A DNA stretch of 64,000 nucleotides. It comes from Patescibacteria group bacterium (GTDB lineage: Bacteria; Patescibacteriota; Patescibacteriia; UBA9934; GWF2-40-263). Below the pieces are notes generated by a model. That model saw only the letters and a program-made list of their open reading frames with translations, had not been told where the DNA came from and did no database searches. The translations under genes and the position numbers were made by a program. Position 1 is the stretch's first letter. The number at the start of each line of letters is the position of its first letter. Positions 2,972-41,074 of the stretch are shown here, in pieces. The DNA lies in the NCBI GenBank assembly GCA_038065075.1, contig JBBTRQ010000008.1:11960-75959 (forward strand). The letters run 5' to 3'.

Positions 2972-3733
2972 TTAGAGCACCGAGTCGATTGCGGCGGCGA
3001 CGGAGGAGAATGGGAGAGCTCCCTTGATGGGGATCGCGTTGCCGTCTGTGTCGATCACGAATGATCCAGGAGTACCGGAGACACCGGCGGCTCCACCGGC
3101 TTGGGCTTGAGCCTCGATCACGTCGTTATACTTTTCTGTGTCGAAGCAGTCCTGCCACTGGGTTGTGTTGAGCCCAAGGTCAGAGGCGAGGGTCGCATAG
3201 AACTCGCTCCCTAAGCTCGACTGATTCGTGAAGAGGGCATCTGCATACTCCCAGAACTTTCCTTGCTCAGAGGCGCACTCAGCGGCGTTGGCGGCAGGGA
3301 CGGCCTCAGCATGAAAGGAGAGTGGGAAGTGGCGGAAGACCCAGCGAACGGAATCGGTATACTCGTCCATGACCTGTAACATCGTTGGGTGGAATCGGCT
3401 GCAGTAGGGACATTGGAAGTCCGAGTATTCGATGATGGTGATGGGCGCGTCCGCGTCTCCACGGATGTGGTCTGCTTCTGTCACGGCAGGAACGCCCGTT
3501 GCGGTTGGGGCTGGAACGGCGGCAGCTGCGGCGGCCACTTGTCCACCGCTTCCTGAATCCTCGGTGTCTGCGGCGGCGAGTCCTTCGACGGAACAATCTC
3601 CGCCCAAGACACAGCTTCCCAAGACAACGAATCCGAGTGTTCCCAGTGCCAAGATCGCGGTGATGAACCCGAGCCAGAAGGCCTGTTTAGAAGGAAGCGA
3701 ATCGAAAAAACTTTTTGTTTGTGGTGAGTCCAT
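2972..3733 (-). CDS. DsbA-like thiol:disulfide oxidoreductase (thioredoxin fold) with N-terminal membrane anchor
   Basis: FQCPYCSRFHP with a CPYC active site and DsbA-like flanks. N-terminal TM helix plus an Ala/Pro-rich linker. Confidence 0.65.
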   Translation of the reverse strand: MDSPQTKSFFDSLPSKQAFWLGFITAILALGTLGFVVLGSCVLGGDCSVEGLAAADTEDSGSGGQVAAAAAAVPAPTATGVPAVTEADHIRGDADAPITIIEYSDFQCPYCSRFHPTMLQVMDEYTDSVRWVFRHFPLSFHAEAVPAANAAECASEQGKFWEYADALFTNQSSLGSEFYATLASDLGLNTTQWQDCFDTEKYNDVIEAQAQAGGAAGVSGTPGSFVIDTDGNAIPIKGALPFSSVAAAIDSVL

Positions 3734-3783
3734 AGGGGTTCAACAAAAGAATTGAGTAAAGGAGCAACAGGATTCTATGGACG

Positions 3784-4161
3784 CTACCAACCGTGTGTGG
3801 CGAAAAGATAGGGAAGAAAAAGATTGTTGGGTGAGGGGCCTGTGCGGGTAAGGTTCACGCGACGGTTGAACCATGTAAGGCCGTGAACGGAGGGGGCAAT
3901 TTTGGGGAAGGTTACGGTCACGAGCACGGCGAGCACGGCGACAAACAGGAGGAGTTTTTGCGCAGGCAGAGCCGTTGCCGATTCACTCCACGACCAAACG
4001 GTTGCCATGGAAATGACCTCGCTTGCACACGCGTCTCCGATGAAGTGCTCGTCAGGCGCAGACGCAAGGCACGTCGTTGATCCACTTCCCACGCTCAATG
4101 AGCCTGCCACAAAAGCGATCAGCACAAGAGGGATAAACAGATGGTGCATGAGAGATCTCAT
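3784..4161 (-). CDS. Small membrane protein (3 predicted TM)
   Basis: Hydrophobic 125-aa ORF adjacent to the DsbA gene. There is no CXXC motif, so no partner role is asserted. Confidence 0.3.
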   Translation of the reverse strand: MRSLMHHLFIPLVLIAFVAGSLSVGSGSTTCLASAPDEHFIGDACASEVISMATVWSWSESATALPAQKLLLFVAVLAVLVTVTFPKIAPSVHGLTWFNRRVNLTRTGPSPNNLFLPYLFATHGW

Positions 4162-4198
4162 AACGTCCCCATCCTATCATAGAGATTGAGACAGAGCG

Positions 4199-5146
4199 AT
4201 GTTATACTTGTGGAATATGACCTCGAAGATCGACAAGCTGATGACCGACTTTCTCGAGTATCTTGAAGTTGAGCGCGGACGCTCTGAGCGTACGATCCGG
4301 AACTACGATTTTTATCTTCGCCGGTTTTCCGACTGGGCGAAGCACCCAGCGCCGGAAAAAATTACCGATGACCTCGTGCACAAGTTTCGCCTGTGGCTCA
4401 ACCGCGGTGTCGAAGGTCGTGAGGCAGCTACGCTCAAGAAGTCGACGCAGAATTATCACCTCATTGCGCTTCGAAGTTTCTTGAAGTACCTCGCCCGCAA
4501 GGATGTCTTGTCGCTCGCCCCTGAAAAGATCGAACTCGCCAAACAAGAAATGCGGCAGGTGGAGTTTTTGGAAGCAGATGAACTTGGTCGTCTGCTCGTT
4601 CAGCCGATGAAGGTCAGCGATGGGCTTGTGGCTTTGCGCGATAAAGCAATTCTTGAATTGCTGTTCTCGACCGGCATGCGCGTGAGCGAGATTTCCAAGC
4701 TGAAGATTGAGTCGATTAATTTATCGCGTGATGAATTTACGGTTCGTGGCAAGGGAAGCAAACTGCGCGTCGTGTTTCTCTCGTCGACCGCAAAGGACGC
4801 GCTCAAAGATTACTTGGGGAAGCGCCGTGACGCTTCGCCGTATCTGTTTGTGGGACATGATCGCGCCAAGAGCGGTCGTGGGCAGTCCGAAGGTCTCACA
4901 CCTCGATCGATCCAACGGCTTGTTGAGCGGTACGCCATGGCCGCGGGTATCACCAAGCACATCACGCCTCACACCCTGCGACATACATTTGCGACAGACT
5001 TACTCCTGGGCGGCGCGGACATCCGCAGTGTCCAGTCATTGCTAGGCCATGCCTCGATCACGACCACACAAATCTACACGCACATCACGAATAAACAGAT
5101 GAAAGAGGTGCACAAGAAGTTCCACGGAAGAAGTCGGCGGAAGTAA
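4199..5146 (+). CDS. xerC: Tyrosine site-specific recombinase, XerC/XerD family
   Basis: C-terminal HTLRHTFAT..GGADIRSVQSLLGHASITTTQIYTHI (R..HxxR..Y catalytic signature). N-terminal core-binding region ERGRSERTIRNY. Alternative starts exist at 4217. Confidence 0.8.
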   Translation: MLYLWNMTSKIDKLMTDFLEYLEVERGRSERTIRNYDFYLRRFSDWAKHPAPEKITDDLVHKFRLWLNRGVEGREAATLKKSTQNYHLIALRSFLKYLARKDVLSLAPEKIELAKQEMRQVEFLEADELGRLLVQPMKVSDGLVALRDKAILELLFSTGMRVSEISKLKIESINLSRDEFTVRGKGSKLRVVFLSSTAKDALKDYLGKRRDASPYLFVGHDRAKSGRGQSEGLTPRSIQRLVERYAMAAGITKHITPHTLRHTFATDLLLGGADIRSVQSLLGHASITTTQIYTHITNKQMKEVHKKFHGRSRRK

Positions 5147-5745: not shown

Positions 5746-5820
5746 GTCCCTGTAGCTCAATGGACAGAGCAGGACTCTTCTAAGGTCTTGATGGGGGTTC
5801 GATTCCCTCCAGGGACACCA
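5746..5820 (+). tRNA. tRNA-Arg (anticodon TCT)
   Basis: Cloverleaf by hand: acceptor GTCCCTG/CAGGGAC, D arm GCTC..GAGC, anticodon loop CTTCTAA, T arm GGGGG-TTCGATT-CCCTC, 3' ACCA. Confidence 0.8.
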
Positions 5821-5944
5821 CAGTCGTCCACAGCTTCTCTTGCCAAGCCCAGAGAATGTCTCTACCTTGTCATTTAGATATGTCGACAAAGGTTGCGATG
5901 TGTCTACGAAAAAACTCCCGAAGTGATCGGGAGTTTTTTCGTGG

Positions 5945-6017
5945 GGTGCCTAGAGGGAGTTGAACCCTCGCTACGAGTTCCACAAACTCGTGTGCTAACC
6001 GTTACACCATAGGCACC
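5945..6017 (-). tRNA. tRNA-His (anticodon GTG)
   Basis: Reverse complement folds with acceptor GGTGCCT/AGGCACC, anticodon stem CGAGT/ACTCG with loop TTGTGGA, and T arm AGGGTTCAACTCCCT. Confidence 0.75.
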
Positions 6018-6489: not shown

Positions 6490-6735
6490 CTACTTCCAAC
6501 GACTCGCCCACATGGCTGTGCGCGCCTTTTCCAATTCCTCGTCCGTGAGCACAACATTCGATTTAAGACTGCCAGCGAGTGATAGGAGATCTTTGATTGG
6601 TTCAAGGATGACCCTCCCTTTCACCTCATCCAATGTGACAAGAAAAGTTGAATCCCTCTGGACGTTCAGGATGTTTCGAATATGTCGGGGAATCGTCACC
6701 TGCCCTTTCTGTGTCATGGCTGTTGTATTGAGCAT
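6490..6735 (-). CDS. vapB: AbrB/SpoVT/MazE-type antitoxin (VapB-like)
   Basis: 81 aa, KGQVTIPRHIRNIL swapped-hairpin motif. Directly upstream of and co-oriented with the PIN gene. Confidence 0.5.
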   Translation of the reverse strand: MLNTTAMTQKGQVTIPRHIRNILNVQRDSTFLVTLDEVKGRVILEPIKDLLSLAGSLKSNVVLTDEELEKARTAMWASRWK

Positions 6736-9729: not shown

Positions 9730-12384
9730 ATGCCTACACAAACTCGACCCACCTTTCTCATCCTCGACGGCAACGCGCTCTTGCACCGCGCCTGGCACGC
9801 CATTCCCCCGCTGACCACAAAAGACGGTTTGGTTGTGAACGCCGCCTATGGGTTCGCGATGATTCTCGAGAAGATGATCGAGACGCAGAAGCCCGAGTAC
9901 ATGGCCGTGGCGTGGGACGTGGAGGGCGGCACATTTCGGGATGAGATTTTCGCCGCCTACAAAGCGCAGCGCGAGAAGAAGGAACAGGAGCTCTACGACC
10001 AGATTCCGATCATCCAAAAAATTCTCGCCGCATTTGGGATTCCTTCGATTGAAGCGCCTGGATACGAGGCCGACGACATTATCGGCACGCTCTCGAAACG
10101 GGCGGCGGATCAGGGATTGCGAGCACTGATCGTCACGGGCGACCTCGACAGTCTCCAGTTGGTCGACGAAAACGTGCAGGTACTATTTTTTCAAAAAGGG
10201 ATTAGCGAGACAAAACTCTACGACGTCGAGGCGGTGAAGGAGCGTTATGGGCTTACAGTAGATCAACTCATCGATTACAAAGCCCTGCGTGGAGATCCAA
10301 GCGATAACATTCCCGGAGTGGCTGGTATCGGTGAAAAAACCGCGACGACCTTGTTGCAGAAGTATCACTCGATCGACGGGATCTACAAACACCTCGAGCA
10401 GATTGAGGAGAAGTACGCCAAAAAACTTCGGGGCCAAGAAAAGACCGTCGAGATCGCGCTCAAGCTCGTGACGATCGTGCGCGACATGAAGTTTCCGTTC
10501 ACGTTTGAAGAGGCCAAGCGCGGCGCGCCCGATTACGAGAAACTTCTTCCCCTCTATAAGGATCTCGAGTTTCGTACGCTGTTGAAAAAACATGGCGAGC
10601 CGATGAGTGATGATGGTGGCCGTGGTGGTGTCCAAGGTGGTAGCCCCAGGCTTCAGCCTGGGTCCGAGAAGGTTGTCACTCGAGTTCAAATTGTCCGAAC
10701 GATCGAGCAGATCCAGCCCAGGCTGAAGCCTGGGGCTACCATCGCCGTTCTCATTGCGGAGCAACCCGCAGATCTTTTCGGGGCGACTACCGCCGCGGTG
10801 GGAATTTACGACGGAAAGAACACCGTCGTTCTCCCCAACCCGTCACGCGAGGCGCTCGCGTCTGTCGCAGGCATCCTAGCGAAGGCTGATCGAGTCATCA
10901 CTCACGATCTCAAACATCTCATGCACCAGCTTGGGAGCGTTGTCGATCGCCCGGCGTTCGACACCATGATTGCGTCGTATCTCCTTGCCTCAGGTTCTCG
11001 AGCACATGATTTACCTGGCGCCATGCATGGGTTCCTCGGTCGGTCGGTGGAAGTGCCAGCGACGTTTGCGAAAGAAAAAGATTACGAGCGGTTTGGACAA
11101 GTTGTCGCGGCTCTTCCGGAGCTTGCACAAAGAATGGAGAAAGAACTCGAGAAGGCGGGATCCACGAAGGTCTTCGGGGAGATTGAAATGCCACTTATTC
11201 CCGTCCTCTATCACATGGAGGTCGAAGGGATTGAGCTTGATACCAAGAGCCTCGAAGTTTTTTCCGCGAGTCTCAAAAAGCGTATCGACGAACTTACCAA
11301 GAAGATCACTAAGCTCGCCGGCGTCGAGTTTAATCTCAACTCCCCTTCCCAACTTGCGGACGTCTTGTTTGTGACCATGGGACTCTCAACCAAAGGCATC
11401 AAGAAAACAAAAACAGGATTCTCTACCGCCGCGCCAGAACTCGAGAAACTGTGGGACGCTCATGAGATCATTCCCCTGCTCTCCGAGTATCGCGAGCTGA
11501 CGAAGTTGCAGTCGACCTATGTGGAGGCCCTTCCCAAACTCGTTGCCAAGGACGGTCGTGTGCATACCAGTTTCAATCAAACCGTTGCGGCCACGGGGCG
11601 TTTATCTTCGTCGGATCCGAACTTGCAGAACATTCCGATCAAGACAGATCTTGGTCGTGAGATTCGCAAGGCGTTTGTCGCGCCACGCGGAAAAATTCTC
11701 GTTGCGGCCGACTACAGTCAGATCGAATTGCGGCTCGCCGCGGTGATCGCAAAAGACAGACCGTTCATCCAGGCGTTTCAGGAAGGGGCGGACATTCATA
11801 CCCGCACAGCGGCTGAGGTATGGGATGTGAGTGAGGAGAAGGTTACAAAGGAACAACGTCGCGCGGCCAAAGCGATAAACTTCGGGATTCTCTACGGCAT
11901 GGGGCCACGGTCGCTCTCGCGATCGACTGGACTTTCAATGGAAGAAGCAAAACATTTTATCGAGCGTTACTTTGAGATCCACCACGCGATCCGTGACTAT
12001 CTCGACCAAACAAAATTGAAGGCGCACACGGACGGCTATGTTGAAACGATGTTTGGTCGACGACGGTATCTCCCCGAGATTCAGTCGGGCGTGCCGATGC
12101 TGGTTGCGAGTGCGGAGCGCATGGCGATCAACATGCCGGTGCAAGGGACGGCCGCGGATATCATGAAAATGGCGATGCTGCGCGTGGACGGTTGGCTTAC
12201 GCAAAGCCAGTGGCCGGCAAAGATGCTTTTGCAGGTGCATGACGAGCTGGTGCTGGAAGTCGACAAGGCGGCGATGGAACCGGTCGTGGCGGGAGTCAAA
12301 GAAATGATGGAGAGCGTGGCGAGCTTTGAGGTGTCGCTGGTTGTGGACATCGAAGTGGGAAAAAACTGGGGGGAGATGAAATAG
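9730..12384 (+). CDS. polA: DNA polymerase I
   Basis: 5'-3' exonuclease region FLILDGNALLHRAWHA and LIDYKALRGDPSDNIPGVAGIGEKTA. Polymerase motifs RRAAKAINFGILYGMG and LLQVHDELVLE. Start taken at Met 9730 rather than the upstream ORF-track start. Confidence 0.9.
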   Translation: MPTQTRPTFLILDGNALLHRAWHAIPPLTTKDGLVVNAAYGFAMILEKMIETQKPEYMAVAWDVEGGTFRDEIFAAYKAQREKKEQELYDQIPIIQKILAAFGIPSIEAPGYEADDIIGTLSKRAADQGLRALIVTGDLDSLQLVDENVQVLFFQKGISETKLYDVEAVKERYGLTVDQLIDYKALRGDPSDNIPGVAGIGEKTATTLLQKYHSIDGIYKHLEQIEEKYAKKLRGQEKTVEIALKLVTIVRDMKFPFTFEEAKRGAPDYEKLLPLYKDLEFRTLLKKHGEPMSDDGGRGGVQGGSPRLQPGSEKVVTRVQIVRTIEQIQPRLKPGATIAVLIAEQPADLFGATTAAVGIYDGKNTVVLPNPSREALASVAGILAKADRVITHDLKHLMHQLGSVVDRPAFDTMIASYLLASGSRAHDLPGAMHGFLGRSVEVPATFAKEKDYERFGQVVAALPELAQRMEKELEKAGSTKVFGEIEMPLIPVLYHMEVEGIELDTKSLEVFSASLKKRIDELTKKITKLAGVEFNLNSPSQLADVLFVTMGLSTKGIKKTKTGFSTAAPELEKLWDAHEIIPLLSEYRELTKLQSTYVEALPKLVAKDGRVHTSFNQTVAATGRLSSSDPNLQNIPIKTDLGREIRKAFVAPRGKILVAADYSQIELRLAAVIAKDRPFIQAFQEGADIHTRTAAEVWDVSEEKVTKEQRRAAKAINFGILYGMGPRSLSRSTGLSMEEAKHFIERYFEIHHAIRDYLDQTKLKAHTDGYVETMFGRRRYLPEIQSGVPMLVASAERMAINMPVQGTAADIMKMAMLRVDGWLTQSQWPAKMLLQVHDELVLEVDKAAMEPVVAGVKEMMESVASFEVSLVVDIEVGKNWGEMK
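10639..10740. repeat. Miniature palindromic element inserted in frame inside polA
   Basis: Perfect 24-bp terminal inverted repeats: GGTAGCCCCAGGCTTCAGCCTGGG at 10639-10662 and CCCAGGCTGAAGCCTGGGGCTACC at 10717-10740. Each arm also contains an internal hairpin. Total 102 bp, equal to 34 codons, so the polA reading frame is preserved. Confidence 0.7.
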
Positions 12385-12385
12385 A

Positions 12386-12426
12386 AAAAACCGCCTGTGC
12401 GAGCGATGCTCGGCAGGCGGTTCTGC
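12386..12426. terminator. Bidirectional terminator between polA and the convergent gene
   Basis: aaaaaaCCGCCTG..CAGGCGGttctg hairpin immediately after the polA stop. Confidence 0.5.
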
Positions 12427-12427
12427 G

Positions 12428-13033
12428 TTACGCCGCGTCGGGCGGCGGTGCGTCCGTGTAGTACTTGGCGATGGCTCGCGTGATCATGGCTTCGTCGGCT
12501 GCCCGGGCCTCGACGAGATAGCCGGTCAAGAACTTCACGTCGTCGAACGCGAAGATGTTCGTGAGGTCGACCATTGCGACCCACAGGACGCGGTCGTTCC
12601 CAGTGCCCGCGAGAGAGAACGCGATCAGCTGATGCTTGACCGCAACCTCCTTGGGAACCAGCCGCACCACCTCTGGATCGATCTCGAGCTTGTCCAGGTC
12701 GACCACTGGAGAGTTGCGCAGGCGCTCAAGGATTTCCAGAACGGGGAAGCGCCGATGCTCCCCGTCAGGCATGCGTGGCGCGGGGTTGTCAGCTCTGGCG
12801 TCCAGAGCCTCGACAGCGACTCGGTTCGCTTCGAGCTCCTTGCGCATCTCCAGCTCGCTTGCGTCCAGTGCCGCAATGAGCGCGTTCATGATCGGCATCA
12901 GCGCTCTGATACCGGCGTTCAAGTGCGGGTAGGACGTCACACCAGCCAGCTCCCGGTTGAGCCGCGCAAGCGTGTAGAGCTTGCTGATGACCTCTCCCCA
13001 CTTTTCTATCAAGACAGCGATTCTGTCAGTCAT
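12428..13033 (-). CDS. Stand-alone T2SS-E N-terminal (GspE_N-like) domain protein
   Basis: C-terminal half DPEVVRLVPKEVAVKHQLIAF..DRVLWVAMVDLTNIFAFDDVKFLTGYLVEARAADEAMITRAIAKYY matches the GspE/PilB N-terminal domain pattern. There is no ATPase domain. Moderately GC-rich. Confidence 0.5.
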   Translation of the reverse strand: MTDRIAVLIEKWGEVISKLYTLARLNRELAGVTSYPHLNAGIRALMPIMNALIAALDASELEMRKELEANRVAVEALDARADNPAPRMPDGEHRRFPVLEILERLRNSPVVDLDKLEIDPEVVRLVPKEVAVKHQLIAFSLAGTGNDRVLWVAMVDLTNIFAFDDVKFLTGYLVEARAADEAMITRAIAKYYTDAPPPDAA

Positions 13034-13131
13034 GAACTAACACCTCCATTCCAGCCACATCCAATCATAATGCTCGATTCTTGGCAATGGACGTGGAGGT
13101 TATTTTGACACTGGGGTAACATGCCTCCACT

Positions 13132-14103
13132 ATGCTCATCTTTGTTTACGGCGAAGACGGCTTCCAAGCGAGGGAGAAGGTGCGGCAGCTCGTCGAGGCT
13201 TTTCGCGAAAAGTTCGATCCCACCGGTCTCAACGTGGCGCAGTTTCAAGGCGATAAAAAAGTGGACATCGGCGAAGTGCTGGGCGCCGTGCACGCCTCTC
13301 CTTTTTTGGGTCAGAAGCGTTTGGTGGTGATTGAGGGTTTGCTGGAGGCAACCAAGAAGGGCGAGATGGCGGTGTGGGCCGACGGATTCAAAAGAACGCC
13401 TGACTCGACGATTGTGATTTTTCATGAGTCGATCGACGCAAAGATGCTGGAGAAAAAGCCGCTCTTCCAAGAGCTTGCACACCAGGGGCAGACGCCCCGC
13501 TATGACTTCCCGCTCCTGCAAGGGACTGCGCTCAATGCCTGGGTGCAGGCGCGGATGAAGGAGCGCGGCGGAAGAATCGAACCCTCGGCGCTGCGAGCGC
13601 TCGTCCTGCGCGTGGGCGCGGACTTATGGCAAATGGACAATGAGATCGGGAAGCTCGTCGCGTATGCGGGAGACCAACCGATCACGGTCGCGACCGTGGA
13701 CGAGTTGGTGAGTGTGAGCTTTGAGGGAAAGATTTTTTCACTCATCGATGCGGTCTCGCAACGTCGACCCACCGAGGCGATTCGACTGTTACAAGAAGAA
13801 CGCTGGAGTGGCGCCAACGACCACTACTTGATGACGATGCTGGGGCGGCAAGTGCGAATCCTTTTGGGCGCACGCGCCATGCTCGATGAGAATCCCCGGG
13901 CGACAAAAGAAGAATTCGCCAACACACTCGACATCCATCCGTTCGTCGCCCAAAAGGCGCTCGCTCAGGCGCGTGGCTTTTCGCTCGAGCACCTCAAGGC
14001 AGTACACGAGTTGTTGTTTGAATTCGACGTTCAGATGAAATCAGGCGGTATCGATGCCGACTTGGCCGTCGACCTCACGACGGTGAAACTGACGCAGAAA
14101 TAA
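13132..14103 (+). CDS. holA: DNA polymerase III delta subunit
   Basis: N-terminus LIFVYGEDGFQAREKV with AAA-lid-like architecture. Typical size of 323 aa. Confidence 0.6.
   Translation: MLIFVYGEDGFQAREKVRQLVEAFREKFDPTGLNVAQFQGDKKVDIGEVLGAVHASPFLGQKRLVVIEGLLEATKKGEMAVWADGFKRTPDSTIVIFHESIDAKMLEKKPLFQELAHQGQTPRYDFPLLQGTALNAWVQARMKERGGRIEPSALRALVLRVGADLWQMDNEIGKLVAYAGDQPITVATVDELVSVSFEGKIFSLIDAVSQRRPTEAIRLLQEERWSGANDHYLMTMLGRQVRILLGARAMLDENPRATKEEFANTLDIHPFVAQKALAQARGFSLEHLKAVHELLFEFDVQMKSGGIDADLAVDLTTVKLTQK
14035..14103 (+). repeat. 69-bp direct repeat, copy A (3' end of holA)
   Basis: atgaaatcaggcggtatcgatgccgacttggccgtcgacctcacgacggtgaaactgacgcagaaataa is identical to 17059-17127. Confidence 0.85.
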
Positions 14104-14137
14104 AACAGACCCTTCCGGATCCGTTTTTTCATGCCTT

Positions 14138-15478
14138 CTACAATTCAGGGCTCCATGTTTCTTCATGAGGCGTTGGTTTGTATCGTAGGCGTGCTCCATT
14201 TTTTTGAATAGATTTTAGTGCATCGATTAAGCGATCGATATCCTCCTTCGTATTGAAGATGCCGATACTTGCACGAACCGCTCCGTAGGAGGCTAGACGG
14301 TCTCCACCCTTGATTCGTTCCTCGATTTTTTTCTGGTCTTCATCACCTATCGCAAACCAACGGCGAACAAGACGGTGATTGCAGATCGTGCCTGCACGCG
14401 TTTCAATCCCGTATTCGTGATCGAGGATTGCGGCGAGCAGAGCATGATGATATCCCTTGAGGGTAAAGGGAAATGTCCCGATACGATCTCCCGAAAGAAA
14501 CTTTTCAAGTGGCACATGCAGAGTCAGATCCGGAATCGCCGCCAACCGTTTTGCTGTGTATTCAACGAGTTCTTTCTCGTGGCCTAGAATCGTTTTCCAA
14601 CCCATCGACATCATTCCACGACAACTTTCAGCGAGAGCAACGATCCCTGTTACGTTCCATGTTCCCGTTTGGTGGCGTTCTGTACTCGGGGCCCAGACGA
14701 TGTCTTTTTCAGAGATCATATCAATCGACCCGCCTCCGGGATCAACGGGCGAACGATCAAGGAGATCCTTTGGCAAGACAAGCACGCCTAATCCAAACGG
14801 CGAATAGATTTTGTGTGCCGAGAAGGCTAACGCGTCAATTCCCTGCTCTGTCATGTTGATCGGCCTATGTGGTGCGAGCTGTGCCGCATCCACGAAGAGT
14901 CGTGCTCCAGACGTATGAGCGATTTCAGACAAGCGTTTAATGTCCGGGACGTAGCCCGTCAGATTTGAGGCACCGGTGATCACGATCCACTTCAAGTTTT
15001 TTTCATGGAGCTTAGCTTTTTTTAGTAGGTCATTCATGTCGATCGATCCATCGCTAAATGCGGCCACCTCAACTATTTTTGCTTTTGTGTTGTACCGCCA
15101 CGGGAGGTTGTTCGAAGTATGTTCGATGCATGAGGTTAAAATGACGTCTTTTTCATTGAGAGTCATGAGTCGTGCAATGAGGTTGATCGCCGTACTTGTG
15201 TTTGAGGAAAAGAGCAATGTTTGTTCAGAAGATACACCCAGGAACTGACGAATGGTTGAGAGAGCCTTTTCGGTTGTTTCTACAGTTGCATTTGCATGAG
15301 GCCCAGCTCCACGGTGGAGTGCTCCATACGAATCGAAGAACGCGTGCAAGGCATCGACCGTCTGCACAAAGGGAGGAGTTGTTGCTGCATTGTTCAATTT
15401 TACTACCCTCACGCGCCCCCCGGTTAAGAGCTCGGTAAATGTATTCGATCCGGTAGTGATCGGCAGGACTTTTTCCAT
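14138..15478 (-). CDS. Class V aminotransferase / cysteine desulfurase-family PLP enzyme
   Basis: ALAFSAHKIYSPFGLGVLV (PLP-lysine SxHK motif). 446 aa, fold-type I size. Confidence 0.6.
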   Translation of the reverse strand: MEKVLPITTGSNTFTELLTGGRVRVVKLNNAATTPPFVQTVDALHAFFDSYGALHRGAGPHANATVETTEKALSTIRQFLGVSSEQTLLFSSNTSTAINLIARLMTLNEKDVILTSCIEHTSNNLPWRYNTKAKIVEVAAFSDGSIDMNDLLKKAKLHEKNLKWIVITGASNLTGYVPDIKRLSEIAHTSGARLFVDAAQLAPHRPINMTEQGIDALAFSAHKIYSPFGLGVLVLPKDLLDRSPVDPGGGSIDMISEKDIVWAPSTERHQTGTWNVTGIVALAESCRGMMSMGWKTILGHEKELVEYTAKRLAAIPDLTLHVPLEKFLSGDRIGTFPFTLKGYHHALLAAILDHEYGIETRAGTICNHRLVRRWFAIGDEDQKKIEERIKGGDRLASYGAVRASIGIFNTKEDIDRLIDALKSIQKNGARLRYKPTPHEETWSPEL

Positions 15479-15482
15479 AGAG

Positions 15483-16190
15483 TTATTTTTTTGTGGCTAA
15501 GAGGAGAACGGTGTTCCATTTGGAAAACAGACGTTTCACGGTGCATCCAGCGTTTCGTATCCACTTCTCTTGATCCTCTATCGTTGCCAAGTTGTTTAGG
15601 TACATATGGTGATGTGCCCAATCACGAAGCATTGCACGAGTAGTCGCGTGCTCGACTAGATGGTGGTAGTGGTAGGCACTCTTTTCAGCGGCATCAATTT
15701 TGTTGTCGCGTGTCATGAGATCACCAAAAAGGAATATCCCGCCGGGCTTCAGAAGGTGGGCGATTTTTCTAAACAAGCGACGCTTACCAAGATGAGATAG
15801 ATGATGGATGCCTATGACAGAAACCACTACGTCGCAAGATCCATGGAGGCGGATCTTAGAAAAGTCACCAAGACGATACTTGATCCGGTGTGCTCCTAAG
15901 CGCTTTTTGGCGTGTGCGAGCATGGTCGACGAAAAGTCCACAACCTCGAATTCGGCGTTTGGAAATGCTGAGCGAATGAGAGACGCTGTGAGGCCTGTGC
16001 CAACTCCAAGCTCCAGGACATGAATTGACTGATTTGGACGGAAACGACGACGAAGGGTCCTTATGAGCGATTCGTGCATTTCTTTATGAAAAGGTATTGC
16101 AGATACGATGCCCCGATCGTATTTTCCCTTCGTGTAGTAGTGATAATTCAGGTCAGTTGGGAGGGCTGGTTGTTTTTCTTGTTTATTCAT
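15483..16190 (-). CDS. Class I SAM-dependent methyltransferase
   Basis: VLELGVGTGLTASLI motif I followed by an acidic residue at the end of beta-2 (EVVDFS). Confidence 0.6.
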   Translation of the reverse strand: MNKQEKQPALPTDLNYHYYTKGKYDRGIVSAIPFHKEMHESLIRTLRRRFRPNQSIHVLELGVGTGLTASLIRSAFPNAEFEVVDFSSTMLAHAKKRLGAHRIKYRLGDFSKIRLHGSCDVVVSVIGIHHLSHLGKRRLFRKIAHLLKPGGIFLFGDLMTRDNKIDAAEKSAYHYHHLVEHATTRAMLRDWAHHHMYLNNLATIEDQEKWIRNAGCTVKRLFSKWNTVLLLATKK

Positions 16191-16315
16191 AGCAAGGAAT
16201 ATTAGTCTAAAATTGTGAAATAGTCAATGATTCTAGTCATTTAGGATTGACAAATTGGCTAATCTAAAATAGAATATGAATATGATAAAATATTGTCGAA
16301 TCTTTTTGACGACAT

Positions 16316-17050
16316 ATGAGTGCAAAAGACTCTCTCGTTTCACTTGGATTATCAGTGCAAGAAGCTGATATTTACGTCGCCTTACTCAAACAAGGCGGAG
16401 CTTCTGCGAGTGTGCTTGCGCAGGACATCGGCATGAAACGCACTACGGTGTATGCGATCCTAAGGAATCTCACCGAAAAGGGGTTCTCTTCTGTATATTT
16501 TCGGCGCGGCAAGCGTGTTTTTCATGCTCAGAAACCACATAAAGTCGCCTCATTGGTAGAACAAAAACTGAAAAGCTTCAACGAGGCAATCCCTTTTTTA
16601 GAATCCATGGATCGATCCCAGGTCCAAAAACTGGGCCTTCGCTTTATTGAAAGTAAAAAGGAACTCGAAAGTTTCTATAATGAGGTCTTGATTGACCAGA
16701 AGAACAGGGGGTACCGTATTATCGGGAGCACTCCATCGTGGGAAGGCATCGACCCTGACTATTTTGTGAAATTCCGTGAGAAACGAGCTAAAGCAAATAT
16801 TCAAACAAGGCTACTCCTCACGGCCGAATCTAAGGAAGAAAGTCCGACCGATAAAGAGCTTCTTCGTCAGGTTCGCTTCCTACCAAAGCGTTATGACTTC
16901 AGGAGCACTTTAGACATCTTTGATGATAAGGTTCTTATCGTGAGTCCAGAGCTATCTTCTCTTGCTGTAATTGTTGCTGTGCCGGCAATGGTAGATATTT
17001 TCAATTCAATCTTTGAGATGCTTTGGGAGAATGTTGGGAGCAGTGAATAG
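16316..17050 (+). CDS. TrmB-family transcriptional regulator
   Basis: N-terminal LSVQEADIYVALLKQGGASASVLAQDIGMKRTTVYAILRNLTEKGF (wHTH of TrmB type) plus a C-terminal ligand-domain-sized region. Confidence 0.5.
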   Translation: MSAKDSLVSLGLSVQEADIYVALLKQGGASASVLAQDIGMKRTTVYAILRNLTEKGFSSVYFRRGKRVFHAQKPHKVASLVEQKLKSFNEAIPFLESMDRSQVQKLGLRFIESKKELESFYNEVLIDQKNRGYRIIGSTPSWEGIDPDYFVKFREKRAKANIQTRLLLTAESKEESPTDKELLRQVRFLPKRYDFRSTLDIFDDKVLIVSPELSSLAVIVAVPAMVDIFNSIFEMLWENVGSSE

Positions 17051-17058
17051 ATATCAGC

Positions 17059-17127
17059 ATGAAATCAGGCGGTATCGATGCCGACTTGGCCGTCGACCTC
17101 ACGACGGTGAAACTGACGCAGAAATAA
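17059..17127 (+). repeat. 69-bp direct repeat, copy B
   Basis: Exact duplicate of the last 69 bp of holA including its stop. It abuts the 5' end of the RNase P RNA. Confidence 0.85.
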
Positions 17128-17460
17128 GAAGAGGGGCATCACAAGGATGCCCCAGGGACAAAGGTTGATGGGAGGAGGTCCATTGGCACCGTGCGTTGAC
17201 CAACCGGGCCGCAGGGGCGACCCTTTTCGACAAACATGAGGCGTACCTCGTAGTTTGTCGGAAGGACTAGGTCCTGGCCGACGCTTCACGACTTTCGCCG
17301 ACGCACTTAGGACGATGCTGTAAAACAGGTTTACAGCGAGGGTTGAAAACGGGAGTAAATCCGCTTTCGTCCGACCTGGGTTTTGCCCCAAGCCACACCC
17401 TTCTTATTTGACACCGGACTTTGGACACGGTGTCCCGAGCCGCCGGACTCCTCTTCCCAT
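17128..17460 (+). ncRNA. rnpB: RNase P RNA
   Basis: 5' GAAGAGG pairs with 3' CCUCUUC (P1). GGAGGAGGUCCAUUGGCACCGUGC resembles the conserved GAGGAAAGUCC(A/G).GC..CACGGUGC P4/P5 region. A 3' CCGGACU segment is complementary to the 5' AGGUCC (P4). GUAAAUCC element present. Confidence 0.6.
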
Positions 17461-17492
17461 AAGGAACGAAAACAGTATAGCACACTTGCTGT

Positions 17493-18257
17493 TTAAGGTT
17501 TGCCGATCTTCCAAAGATTTTCAAAAAGGTTTAGCTGTCCCTGAACGAGGTCGGCGTTTTTGATGCGAATGGCAGTCACGGGTTGAGTGGGAGTGGAGAA
17601 GATCATGTTTACGATCACTCCTGCCTCCGGATATATACGCACGCCAGACGGATTCTCGATGTCGTCTGGTAGGTAGCGGATGTCATAGAGGTCCAGTTGG
17701 TCGGCGAGATCCCTTTGGAGCATCTCGCGATGTGACTCGTATGAGATCATTTTGATGTGAATCCCCTGTGTGCGGATCGCCTTGTGGTAACGATCCCAGA
17801 TTTTTCGCATGGTGAGCTCCATGAACTCCTCACCGCCGGTTCCAAGAATGTAGGACGCTCCGCCTCTGGGGATTTTTCGGATCTGCTCGGTGAGGAGATT
17901 CAAGTAGGCTTCATTTCCCTCGTAGACCGTAATTTCTTGGATGGGGTGAACCGAAAGACTTGAAACCGCGCGGGCAATTTCTGTTGCAATCCTTTGTTTT
18001 TCTTCAAATTCTTGAACAACCACGCTAGGATCAGCAACGCTAAACTGCTTTTTTCCTTTGATTTGGCTCTCGAGGACGTACTTTTTCTCGATTAGATGCT
18101 CGAGAGAGGTATACACGACGTTTCGGTGGAGACCGGTTTTTTTGATGAGTGGTCCACTGGTCGACGTCCCAAGAAAGACCAGCTCAACATAAACCTGGCT
18201 CTCATGGTCAGTGAGGCCGAGCGATAAAAGGCTTAACCTTAAGGCTTTTTTGTCCAT
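17493..18257 (-). CDS. TrmB-family transcriptional regulator (second paralog)
   Basis: N-terminal LGLTDHESQVYVELVFLGTSTSGPLIKKTGLHRNVVYTSLEHLIEKKY wHTH. Convergent on rnpB from the other side. Confidence 0.5.
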   Translation of the reverse strand: MDKKALRLSLLSLGLTDHESQVYVELVFLGTSTSGPLIKKTGLHRNVVYTSLEHLIEKKYVLESQIKGKKQFSVADPSVVVQEFEEKQRIATEIARAVSSLSVHPIQEITVYEGNEAYLNLLTEQIRKIPRGGASYILGTGGEEFMELTMRKIWDRYHKAIRTQGIHIKMISYESHREMLQRDLADQLDLYDIRYLPDDIENPSGVRIYPEAGVIVNMIFSTPTQPVTAIRIKNADLVQGQLNLFENLWKIGKP

Positions 18258-18375: not shown

Positions 18376-18984
18376 ATGCGCATCCTGGTCATCGACGACA
18401 AGCAGAACCACCGTGATTCGGCCACGGAAACCCTGAAGGGGCATGAGGTCTCCGTCGCCTCCTCGTACGACGAGGCGACCAGGCTCATGGAGCCGGCGTA
18501 CGACGAGGCGATCGAGGAGAAGCACCTGCGCGATGCGGGGGTCACGAAGCAGAACCCCGCCTTCGTGAACACGGATGAGGGCAAGGAAAGGTGGAAGGCC
18601 TACTGGGCTGCCCGCAAGAGCGCGCACAGCGCAGCGGAAATCCCCTTCCCGTTCGAGGTGGTTCTCACCGACATGATGATGCCGATGGGGGACTGGAACA
18701 CCCTGCGGGATGCATGCGATCCGTCGCAGCAAATCCCTTACGGGTTCGTCCTCGCCCTCCGGGCGGCGCAGCGCGGTGCCAAGTGGGTAGCAATGGTGAC
18801 GGACACCAATCACCACAAGGGTGCCATGAGCGCGGCGATCGACTGCATCGGTGACTCCTACTACTCCGGCAAGGAGGCCGACTTCCAGATCAACGGCGCG
18901 AAGGTCCGCTTCGTTCACGCCCCGTTCTGCGAGGATGGGATCAGCAAGGACTGGGGAAGAGTTCTCGCTGATCTCGTGAAGTGA
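18376..18984 (+). CDS. Stand-alone receiver (REC)-like domain protein with large insertion, GC-rich
   Basis: MRILVIDD (beta-1 acidic pair) and VVLTDMMMPMGDW (phospho-acceptor Asp context), separated by an approximately 60-aa insert. No output domain. Confidence 0.4.
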   Translation: MRILVIDDKQNHRDSATETLKGHEVSVASSYDEATRLMEPAYDEAIEEKHLRDAGVTKQNPAFVNTDEGKERWKAYWAARKSAHSAAEIPFPFEVVLTDMMMPMGDWNTLRDACDPSQQIPYGFVLALRAAQRGAKWVAMVTDTNHHKGAMSAAIDCIGDSYYSGKEADFQINGAKVRFVHAPFCEDGISKDWGRVLADLVK

Positions 18985-19166
18985 GGTAGAAGGCCCTAGA
19001 CCAGGGGAAACAATACTGGTCACGCTGAACGATGGCCGTTCAACACGACCCGTCCATAACTCCCCCGCCCGAGGGTAATCAAATATCGGGCACCCCTTTG
19101 AGGAGAGAGATTAAAACTGTCTATTCAAAGGAGCAAAAAACAGACCCTTTCAGGTCCGTTTTTTGT

Positions 19167-19436
19167 TTACGCCTTTTTGAGGGCGTTTACCTTTTTCATG
19201 AGTCGCGACTTGTAGCGTGAAACGGTATTGAGCTTCAGCAGGTTCTTCTGTACCGCTTTGTCGAGCTTCTTGCCGACGAGTCGAGCCACTTCGGCGGCTT
19301 CGTCTACCTTTTTAGCGGTGACAGCCTTGCGAAGTTTCACGCGTAGAGAATGAATCTCAGCGAGCGCTACCTTGTTTCGTTCGGCGTGAGTCTTATTTTG
19401 TCGAAGCGCTTTTTTAGCATTTCGTAGATTTGGCAT
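19167..19436 (-). CDS. rpsT: 30S ribosomal protein S20
   Basis: MPNLRNAKKALRQNKTHAERNK..; typical length and composition. Confidence 0.85.
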   Translation of the reverse strand: MPNLRNAKKALRQNKTHAERNKVALAEIHSLRVKLRKAVTAKKVDEAAEVARLVGKKLDKAVQKNLLKLNTVSRYKSRLMKKVNALKKA

Positions 19437-41017: not shown

Positions 41018-41074
41018 ATGGTAGCCGCAGGCTTCAGCCTGCGTCCGAACGCGGGCTAAAGCCCGCGGCTACCC
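41018..41074. repeat. Short sibling of the polA-internal palindromic element
   Basis: GGTAGCCGCAGGCTTCAGCCTGCG..tccgaac..GCGGCTACC shares its terminal motif and the internal tccgaac with the element at 10639-10740. Confidence 0.65.

Follow-up and report, generated by a model that had tools for sequence, protein, structure and literature searches.

Copies of the holA 3′ end bracket a three-gene cassette in a Patescibacteria genome: a probably old, integrase-free insertion beside an unclassified structured RNA

The window analysed here is a stretch of 64,000 nucleotides (64 kb) from a Patescibacteria group bacterium of groundwater (contig JBBTRQ010000008.1 of assembly GCA_038065075.1), which its relatives place in Candidatus Uhrbacteria, and the subject is an island within it at the 3′ end of holA, the gene for the DNA polymerase III delta subunit. 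The gene is intact (13132-14103, plus strand, 323 amino acids) and its assignment is supported by synteny, by Pfam matches to DNA_pol3_delta and DNA_pol3_delta_C (4e-23, residues 199-319 of 323) and by a 100% identical protein that NCBI names DNA polymerase III subunit delta. As the original prediction had reported, the final 69 bp of holA, TAA stop codon included (14035-14103, plus strand, copy A), recur downstream in the same orientation (17059-17127, copy B) and are identical at 69/69 positions. In a repeat search this was by far the longest exact repeat in the window, and no other duplication of a gene end was found there. Between the copies lie three genes, which Pfam confirms as the pyridoxal phosphate (PLP) aminotransferase, S-adenosylmethionine (SAM) methyltransferase and TrmB regulator first proposed. 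The aminotransferase (14138-15478, minus strand, 446 amino acids) is a class-V, SufS/Csd-like PLP enzyme (Aminotran_5, 1.9e-77) that matches the SufS family of NCBIfam at 2e-74, yet falls below the family cutoff. The class-I SAM-dependent methyltransferase (15483-16190, minus strand, 235 amino acids) matches Methyltransf_25/11/12, and the regulator, TrmB1 (16316-17050, plus strand, 244 amino acids), matches TrmB at 2.6e-13. TrmB1 and the methyltransferase diverge from an AT-rich promoter region (16191-16315, GC ~0.37) with promoter-like sites on the plus strand at 16247-16275 (11/12 match) and on the minus strand at 16227-16199. The stop codon of TrmB1 is separated from copy B by a joint of 8 nt (ATATCAGC, 17051-17058), the sole non-native joint of the locus.

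On its left side the cassette is preceded by a hairpin with a T-run directly after holA (termA; AAAACAGACCCTTCCGGATCCGTTTTTT, 14102-14129), predicted to fold at -4.3 kcal/mol. On the right, copy B abuts a structured RNA gene of about 340 nt (17128-17467, minus strand), which is followed by a second TrmB-family regulator of what appears to be an older, RNA-side block (TrmB2, 17493-18257, minus strand, 254 amino acids, Pfam TrmB 5e-9). Beyond this are a high-GC gene for a CheY-like receiver-domain protein (18376-18984, plus strand; translation start MRILVIDDK, weak matches to response regulators in the PDB), a terminator (termR, 19137-19164) and rpsT, the gene for ribosomal protein S20 (19167-19436, minus strand; tblastn, Pfam Ribosomal_S20p), which anchors the variable region on the right. 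Both repeat copies are present in three independently assembled long contigs that agree at 99.9%; the window is nearly identical to a contig of GCA_964359885.1, and contigs from ERZ1300416 and ERZ2470813 are 99.9% identical over 21 kb. The joint from TrmB1 to copy B is covered by four more short contigs from further samples, and the repeat with the three genes is reproduced in at least seven independent samples. All contigs that encode an identical holA (five) or an identical TrmB1 (nine) have the occupied arrangement, with no alternative junctions among them. The repeat is therefore real, both copies and the joint being carried by independent contigs.

The order of polA and holA facing rpsT and RmuC is conserved across Patescibacteria, and the content of the gap between holA and rpsT varies among relatives with 67-78% holA identity. 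In type 1 loci (L004, L006, L015/16, L051/52) only a hairpin (AACAGACC...GGTCTGTTTTT) separates the holA stop from the rpsT stop. In type 2 loci (L013, L014, L017, L053, L054) the holA stop leads directly into the RNA gene with no cassette, and downstream of the RNA there is usually a TrmB gene and others, then the common terminator and rpsT. Other variants contain PIN or toxin-antitoxin genes (L005, L053) or, in L026, a deletion relic, where the RNA is gone and only a 104-nt remnant of the TrmB2 C-terminus is left; a supposed remnant of the RNA 5′ end in L026 was rejected, the alignment being to the TrmB2 remnant only. In L053 and L054 the end of holA, ACGCAGAAATAA joined to GAAGAGGGGCAC (also CAGAAATAA joined to GAAGAGGGGCAC), runs straight into the RNA and then TrmB, and this junction is the same as that between copy B and the RNA in the window (CAGAAATAA joined to GAAGAGGGGCA). 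L054 carries the closest full-length holA (78% amino acid identity), and orthologs of TrmB2 follow the RNA both there (84%) and in L045 (78%). L053 and L054 are thus true empty sites of the kind that the original prediction had proposed to look for in relatives, from which it follows that the cassette was inserted where holA meets the RNA and that copy B is the displaced native end, still joined to its native downstream neighbour.

The occupied layout is shared with other species. In L045 holA, terminator, aminotransferase, methyltransferase, TrmB1, copy B and, further on, the RNA and TrmB2 are colinear with the window over 3.6 kb at about 75% nucleotide identity, and at the protein level holA is 75.5%, the aminotransferase 80%, the methyltransferase 72%, TrmB1 87% and TrmB2 78% identical. 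L048 has holA, the terminator and the aminotransferase (90% amino acid identity) in the same order. Copy B of L045 measures 42-49 nt, is 90-93% identical to copy A and is degraded or truncated on its left side. In both L045 and L048 copy A ends in CAGTAA or CAGTAG followed by the terminator, as in the insert-free type 1 loci, while copy B of L045 ends in CAGAAATAA, as do the empty sites; the two copies therefore began as different alleles. In the window copy A now has the B-type end, and holA an extra C-terminal Lys codon. Copies A and B of the window differ at 0/48 positions, as against 9-12/48 for orthologous copies. Since the cassette is as diverged as its flanks (~75% at the nucleotide level), the 69/69 identity points to recent homogenisation, not recent integration. 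Copy B of L045 has 7 differences from its own copy A and 11 from L054. Between L045, which is occupied, and L054, which is empty, the RNA is 95.8% identical and holA 79.6%. On this comparison the holA-rpsT locus is a recombination mosaic, with a break in its history near the holA stop codon. L045 also contains a second insertion nested at the same junction (3684-4430 of the reverse complement), with about 680 nt of high-GC sequence and a 159-residue open reading frame (ORF) that weakly matches phrog_420; on one side of the insertion is copy B and on the other a third holA-end copy (~20 nt, AAAACTGACGCAAAAATAA, 15/21 identical), which abuts the RNA.

The left end of the insert consists of sequence that is native to this chromosomal region. 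The hairpin termA is identical at 25/28 positions to termR, the native bidirectional terminator that stands immediately before the rpsT stop in every relative, and it matches the hairpin found after holA in L004, L006, L015, L045, L048 and L055. Copy A and termA together (14035-14129) correspond to the contiguous unit of holA end plus terminator in L004, L015, L051 and L055. Hence termA is a paralogous copy of the native holA/rpsT terminator, a feature that had been missed when the repeat was first noticed, and the termA/termR pair brackets the whole 5-kb island. Both holA ends accordingly lie in native-looking contexts, A like type 1 and B like type 2. A left end copied from a terminator native to the chromosome would be expected of incoming DNA from a sister chromosome, and not of an element equipped with an attP. 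The two terminators of L045 are likewise more alike than either is to those of the window.

Homologs of the cargo PLP enzyme with 60-90% identity are spread across Patescibacteria, and the three genes recur there as a conserved module (60-90% amino acid identity) in which TrmB1 always diverges from the methyltransferase-aminotransferase pair, so that the co-occurrence of the cargo genes elsewhere, put forward as a check, is indeed observed. A 679-residue protein in which methyltransferase and aminotransferase are fused (P0096) supports a functional link between the two enzymes. The cassette occupies several unrelated loci (L040-42, L043/44, L046/47, L049), and its nucleotide homology to the window is confined to the three genes (14144-17035). 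At L040-43, L046 and L049 the flanks are unrelated and showed no direct repeats of more than 10 nt, whereas the same test recovered the 69-mer of the window. Over the 13 loci tested, holA-end repeats occur only where the cassette sits at holA. The original prediction had named relatives with the same cassette and no repeat as the observation that would speak against it, and these loci elsewhere in Patescibacteria are of that kind. At one other locus (L041, 8-922) an IS256-type transposase adjoins the cassette, the only cassette with such a neighbour.

The cargo had been described as lacking an integrase, and scans of all ORFs of the island against Pfam, NCBIfam and PHROGs agree, with no recombinase found. 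The high-GC gene at 18376-18984 was considered as a hidden recombinase and rejected, as its product is CheY-like and has no recombinase match in the three collections. An Xer-like recombinase gene is present 9 kb upstream (4199-5146), in conserved backbone, and also in the island-free L051. Neither the RNA nor the cassette had a match in viral contigs, a phage collection or PLSDB that would indicate a phage or plasmid origin. Transposons and insertion sequences leave target duplications of 2-14 bp and have terminal inverted repeats and a transposase; such an insertion was rejected on account of the 69-bp duplication, the lack of inverted repeats at the cassette ends and the lack of a transposase. 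Base composition was dropped as evidence of foreign origin, for although the GC content of the cassette is 0.44-0.51 and that of holA 0.57-0.60, rpsT/RmuC and TrmB2 are equally low.

The sequence on the far side of copy B was originally read as the beginning of the RNase P RNA. The gap in question (17128-17492) is strongly structured (z = -3.6 and -4.1), and an nhmmer profile search found homologs in six other lineages (L013 5514-6060, L014 6318-6668, L017 1500-1862, L045 1897-2253, L053 6458-6806 and L054 1580-1937). An alignment of six sequences has 94 consensus pairs, and compensatory changes are seen in 20; pairing holds in 94% of the paired cells compared with 35-48% when the partners are slid, and the observed covariation was reached in 0/500 shuffles. 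A terminator scan finds an intrinsic terminator on the minus strand (17133-17153; 8-bp stem with 6 GC pairs, tail TCTTCTTATT) that is conserved in all homologs and whose U-tract extends into copy B, and at the other end there is an extended -10 promoter (TGTGCTATACT, 17474-17484, minus strand) that aligns with TGATATAAT in L017 and TGGTATAAT in L014. The invariant G-U pairs, the conserved promoter and the conserved hairpin-plus-U terminator place the gene on the minus strand, and it therefore ends at copy B and does not begin there. The RNA always lies directly after a holA 3′ end; it is absent from the holA locus, the only locus examined for it, in L004, L006, L015 and L051, and deleted in L026. 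In the L013 homolog one conserved hairpin is enlarged near its apex by an insertion of about 180 nt (~5765-5948), and such large extensions of helices have been described for structural RNAs of the candidate phyla radiation (CPR).

Nor did the RNase P label find support in Rfam. At gathering thresholds the window yields tRNAs only; the RNase P models have no match at E<=10 in 16900-17700 (801 nt), none in the 316-nt core among matches listed down to 9.6 bits and none at E<=5 in four homologous loci, and no family of Rfam 15 matches the ~340-nt RNA. RNase P RNAs of CPR bacteria can be very divergent and score very low, so that a negative cmscan is no absolute proof against RNase P (Lui et al, PMC8172020). 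The RNA does resemble RNase P RNA (RF00010, RF00011) in size (~330 nt), in a motif, GAGGAGUCCGG, that is similar to GAGGAAAGUCCGG of CR-I, and in a possible stem-hairpin-pseudoknot order that recalls P2-P3-P4. The conserved core of RNase P is formed by the P4 pseudoknot with CR-I (GAGGAAAGUCC) and CR-V (ACAGAAnnnGGCUUA), whereas in this RNA no CR-V or 3′ strand of P4 is recognisable and no covariance model matches. In its GAGGAGUCCGG, which forms part of a nested terminal stem, the conserved A's are missing, and a 5-bp pseudoknot of GAAGG with C(C/U)UU(U/C) is possible in all six sequences, the supporting changes being only from G-C to G-U. The gene also lies inside a variable island, is missing at holA in the close relatives named above and runs on the strand opposite to the one first implied; an essential RNase P RNA would be expected in every genome of the clade. 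Following the Rfam searches and manual threading the RNase P label was rejected as unsupported, a degenerate RNase P being retained as an improbable option. The alignment thus points to an unclassified structured RNA gene with its own promoter and terminator, which could represent a new class of RNA or else an RNase P of extreme divergence.

In sum the cassette is a true insertion with the topology of attL and attR, yet one that is old, shared between species, free of an integrase and bordered by host-derived sequence at both ends. General recombination with gene conversion explains it best, which makes it one more instance of a type of event already known. The reading that we favour, with a probability of roughly 0.55, is a homology-driven insertion-duplication in a recombination hot spot, kept by gene conversion, and not an active integrative element. 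From the repeat, the empty sites, the layout in other species, the missing recombinase, the other cassette loci without repeats and the mosaicism we infer the following route, direction and gene conversion. In the Uhrbacteria clade the content between the convergent holA and rpsT is variable, and holA-RNA-TrmB2-terminator-rpsT would be one ancestral state. The DNA that brought the three-gene Patescibacteria module to the holA/RNA junction would have included the final ~70 bp of a sister holA as well as the holA/rpsT terminator. Joining may have taken place by recombination within the holA homology, as a Campbell-type single crossover with a circular intermediate, or alternatively with linear DNA through one homologous and one illegitimate end. 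The product would have, on the left, an intact holA that keeps a terminator of its own and, on the right, copy B attached to the terminator of the RNA gene. Since the conserved C-terminal domain reaches residue 319 of 323 and is encoded in part by the 69 bp, an event would be viable only if it regenerated holA. Later the arrangement would have been passed on by descent and, through homologous recombination, between related species. In the window species the two copies were probably made uniform not long ago along their full length (69/69), whether through gene conversion or through an exchange between homologous sequences. Direct repeats would also permit precise loss, with A x B leading back to type 2 and termA x termR to type 1, which could explain the patchy states among close relatives.

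Two properties of insertion-duplication are seen at the locus, in that the duplicated segment is chromosomal and the ends of the insert are host-derived (copy A with termA), and that homologous exchange or gene conversion has left traces (the L045/L054 mosaic; 0/48 against 9-12/48 differences). The likeness to Campbell-type events is that the insert is bracketed by two copies of a homologous segment, that no dedicated recombinase is needed and that the repeats allow a precise loss, which fits the patchy presence; it differs in that no circular intermediate was observed here and in that, at 69 bp, the segment is close to the smallest on which RecA recombination works efficiently. CPR bacteria probably take up DNA. 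Natural transformation with homology-facilitated illegitimate recombination is similar in combining one homologous anchor with one illegitimate joint, in leaving stray partial gene copies at the joint and in the mosaicism between lineages seen here; it differs in the lack of a demonstrated microhomology at the joint.

Several points weigh against insertion-duplication. Campbell-type recombination, one-ended recombination and a recombinase acting in trans give an identical topology, and the route is unreadable from the product. A length of 69 bp is short, if not prohibitive, for RecA-dependent recombination, and the ~20-nt holA-end duplication of the nested L045 insertion is too short for ordinary homologous recombination; the latter hints at a site-directed process, unless it is a relic later shortened by deletion. 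A precursor with holA, terminator and cassette and without copy B was seen in no relative examined. Finally, the cassettes of L040 and L049 at other loci are 84% and 82% identical to that of the window, compared with 80% for L045 at the holA locus, a poor fit to simple vertical descent of one insertion.

The strongest of the alternatives, although an unlikely one, reverses the polarity of the event. The resident would then be holA, terminator and cassette, and the incoming DNA a segment from a sister haplotype with the holA 3′ fragment, the RNA, TrmB2, the receiver gene, the terminator and rpsT. Homology in rpsT/RmuC would be its right-hand anchor and an illegitimate join behind TrmB1 its left end, a case of homology-facilitated illegitimate recombination. 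A single illegitimate joint (17051-17058) would suffice and both repeat pairs, the holA ends A/B and termA/termR, would be accounted for; the RNA block does move between lineages, as its 95.8% identity between L045 and L054 against 79.6% for holA indicates, and the RNA is joined to a holA 3′ end in every lineage. The precursor that such an event needs, with holA, terminator, cassette and rpsT but no copy B, is the one missing from all relatives examined, whereas the precursor required by insertion-duplication, holA followed by the RNA without a cassette, is present in L053, L054, L013, L014 and L017.

Also unlikely, and placed after reversed polarity, is a remnant of site-specific integration, the copies being attL and attR of a cis-mobilisable element (CIME) or of an insert moved in trans, and the tyrosine or serine recombinase being located elsewhere or lost. 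Here the original proposal of integration into a gene terminus is upheld in its topology and its empty sites, but a site-specific att/integrase mechanism is not supported. Direct repeats of the target end flank the insert (69/69), the gene end is regenerated on one side with the displaced end on the far side, and unoccupied sites exist in L053 and L054, all as in integrative elements and islands that lie in the 3′ ends of tRNA, tmRNA and protein genes, including CIMEs without an integrase. The two nested insertions at one junction of L045, each with a duplicated holA end, recall tandem att arrays, and the Xer-like gene 9 kb upstream would encode a tyrosine recombinase. That gene, however, belongs to the conserved backbone and is shared with L051, which has no island, and no recombinase, integrase, excisionase or other mobility gene is found in or beside the island itself. 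The cargo is a housekeeping-type module that is found elsewhere (L040-43, L046, L049) without att-like repeats, and neither an att carried along with it nor the same site in unrelated hosts was seen. The left end is a host terminator, the structure is inherited across species with repeats that have diverged and a cassette as diverged as its flanks (~75% of nucleotides identical in L045), no copies are found among viral, phage or plasmid sequences, and the contigs with identical holA (5) or TrmB1 (9) show no alternative junction.

A bolder reading, which we regard as improbable, takes the junction of the holA stop and the RNA terminator as a reusable docking site for a site-directed mechanism not yet described, into which cassettes without an integrase have repeatedly been inserted with duplication of the holA end each time (69 bp in the window, ~20 bp in the nested insertion of L045), the RNA being a new CPR class of large structured RNAs, and not a degenerate RNase P, that is possibly linked to the hot spot. 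RNA-guided targeting was considered separately and rejected, as complementarity between the RNA and the repeat is at the level of chance (longest shared word 7 nt, shuffled mean 7.4). That chance level also bears on the still less probable idea that copy B is functional, its identity being held by selection as a downstream flank or read-through region of the RNA (antisense to holA mRNA) or as a 22-codon ORF. The 69/69 identity despite an old origin, the U-tract of the RNA terminator entering copy B and the in-frame ATG that opens copy B would agree with a function, but in L045 the copy has lost the ATG, part of its left half and the stop, and a 680-nt insertion separates it from the RNA. An assembly artefact, with the repeat duplicated or collapsed, can practically be dismissed: the short-k contig L059 (equal to window 14074-17088) breaks exactly inside the repeat, as expected, but L061 runs from TrmB1 into 54 nt of copy B, the 8-nt joint is reproduced in L059-L061, the three long contigs agree with one another and L045, from another species, has the same architecture.

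Under insertion-duplication, streamlined CPR genomes without most of the classical machinery of mobile elements would still gain, keep and probably lose accessory modules, and for this they would need no more than short gene-end homology at one constant hot spot, flanked by two essential genes that converge; a short relic repeat would stay identical through concerted evolution. A perfect direct repeat around a cargo is by itself no proof of recent or of site-specific integration. Two leads emerge: the unclassified RNA with its covariation support, the by-product of greatest novelty, and the holA/RNA junction as a site used more than once. Whether an extremely divergent RNase P or a new accessory RNA, the unclassified RNA would add to the sparse catalogue of CPR non-coding RNAs and may matter more than the insertion.

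Some minor features were noted in and around the island. In two of three near-identical assemblies (L002 and L003) the part of TrmB2 corresponding to 17736-18226 has ten 1-bp deletions, mostly in homopolymers, and one single-nucleotide polymorphism, and two further 1-bp deletions split polA; the TrmB2 deletions could be either decay in those populations or an error of low-coverage assembly. Between polA and holA (12385-13131) the window contains a gene for a 201-residue MshEN-domain protein (12428-13033, minus strand), unlike most relatives (L005, L006, L015, L051, L053), in which polA and holA are a few bases apart; a homolog with 40% identity occurs at the same place in L013, and no flanking repeat was found around this insertion. 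A 30-nt hairpin-forming sequence (TGGTAGCCCCAGGCTTCAGCCTGGGTCCGA) is present twice with 93% identity, at 10638-10667 and 41019-41048, one copy lying inside polA. In L045 a motif of about 45 nt (CCCGAGGGTAATCAnATATCGGGCA...GAGGAG) stands upstream of small high-GC ORFs (5950-6001 and 6588-6630 of the reverse complement); the window has it once (19050-19110), with no ORF and just before the rpsT terminator, and it may be a portable module of promoter and ribosome-binding site.

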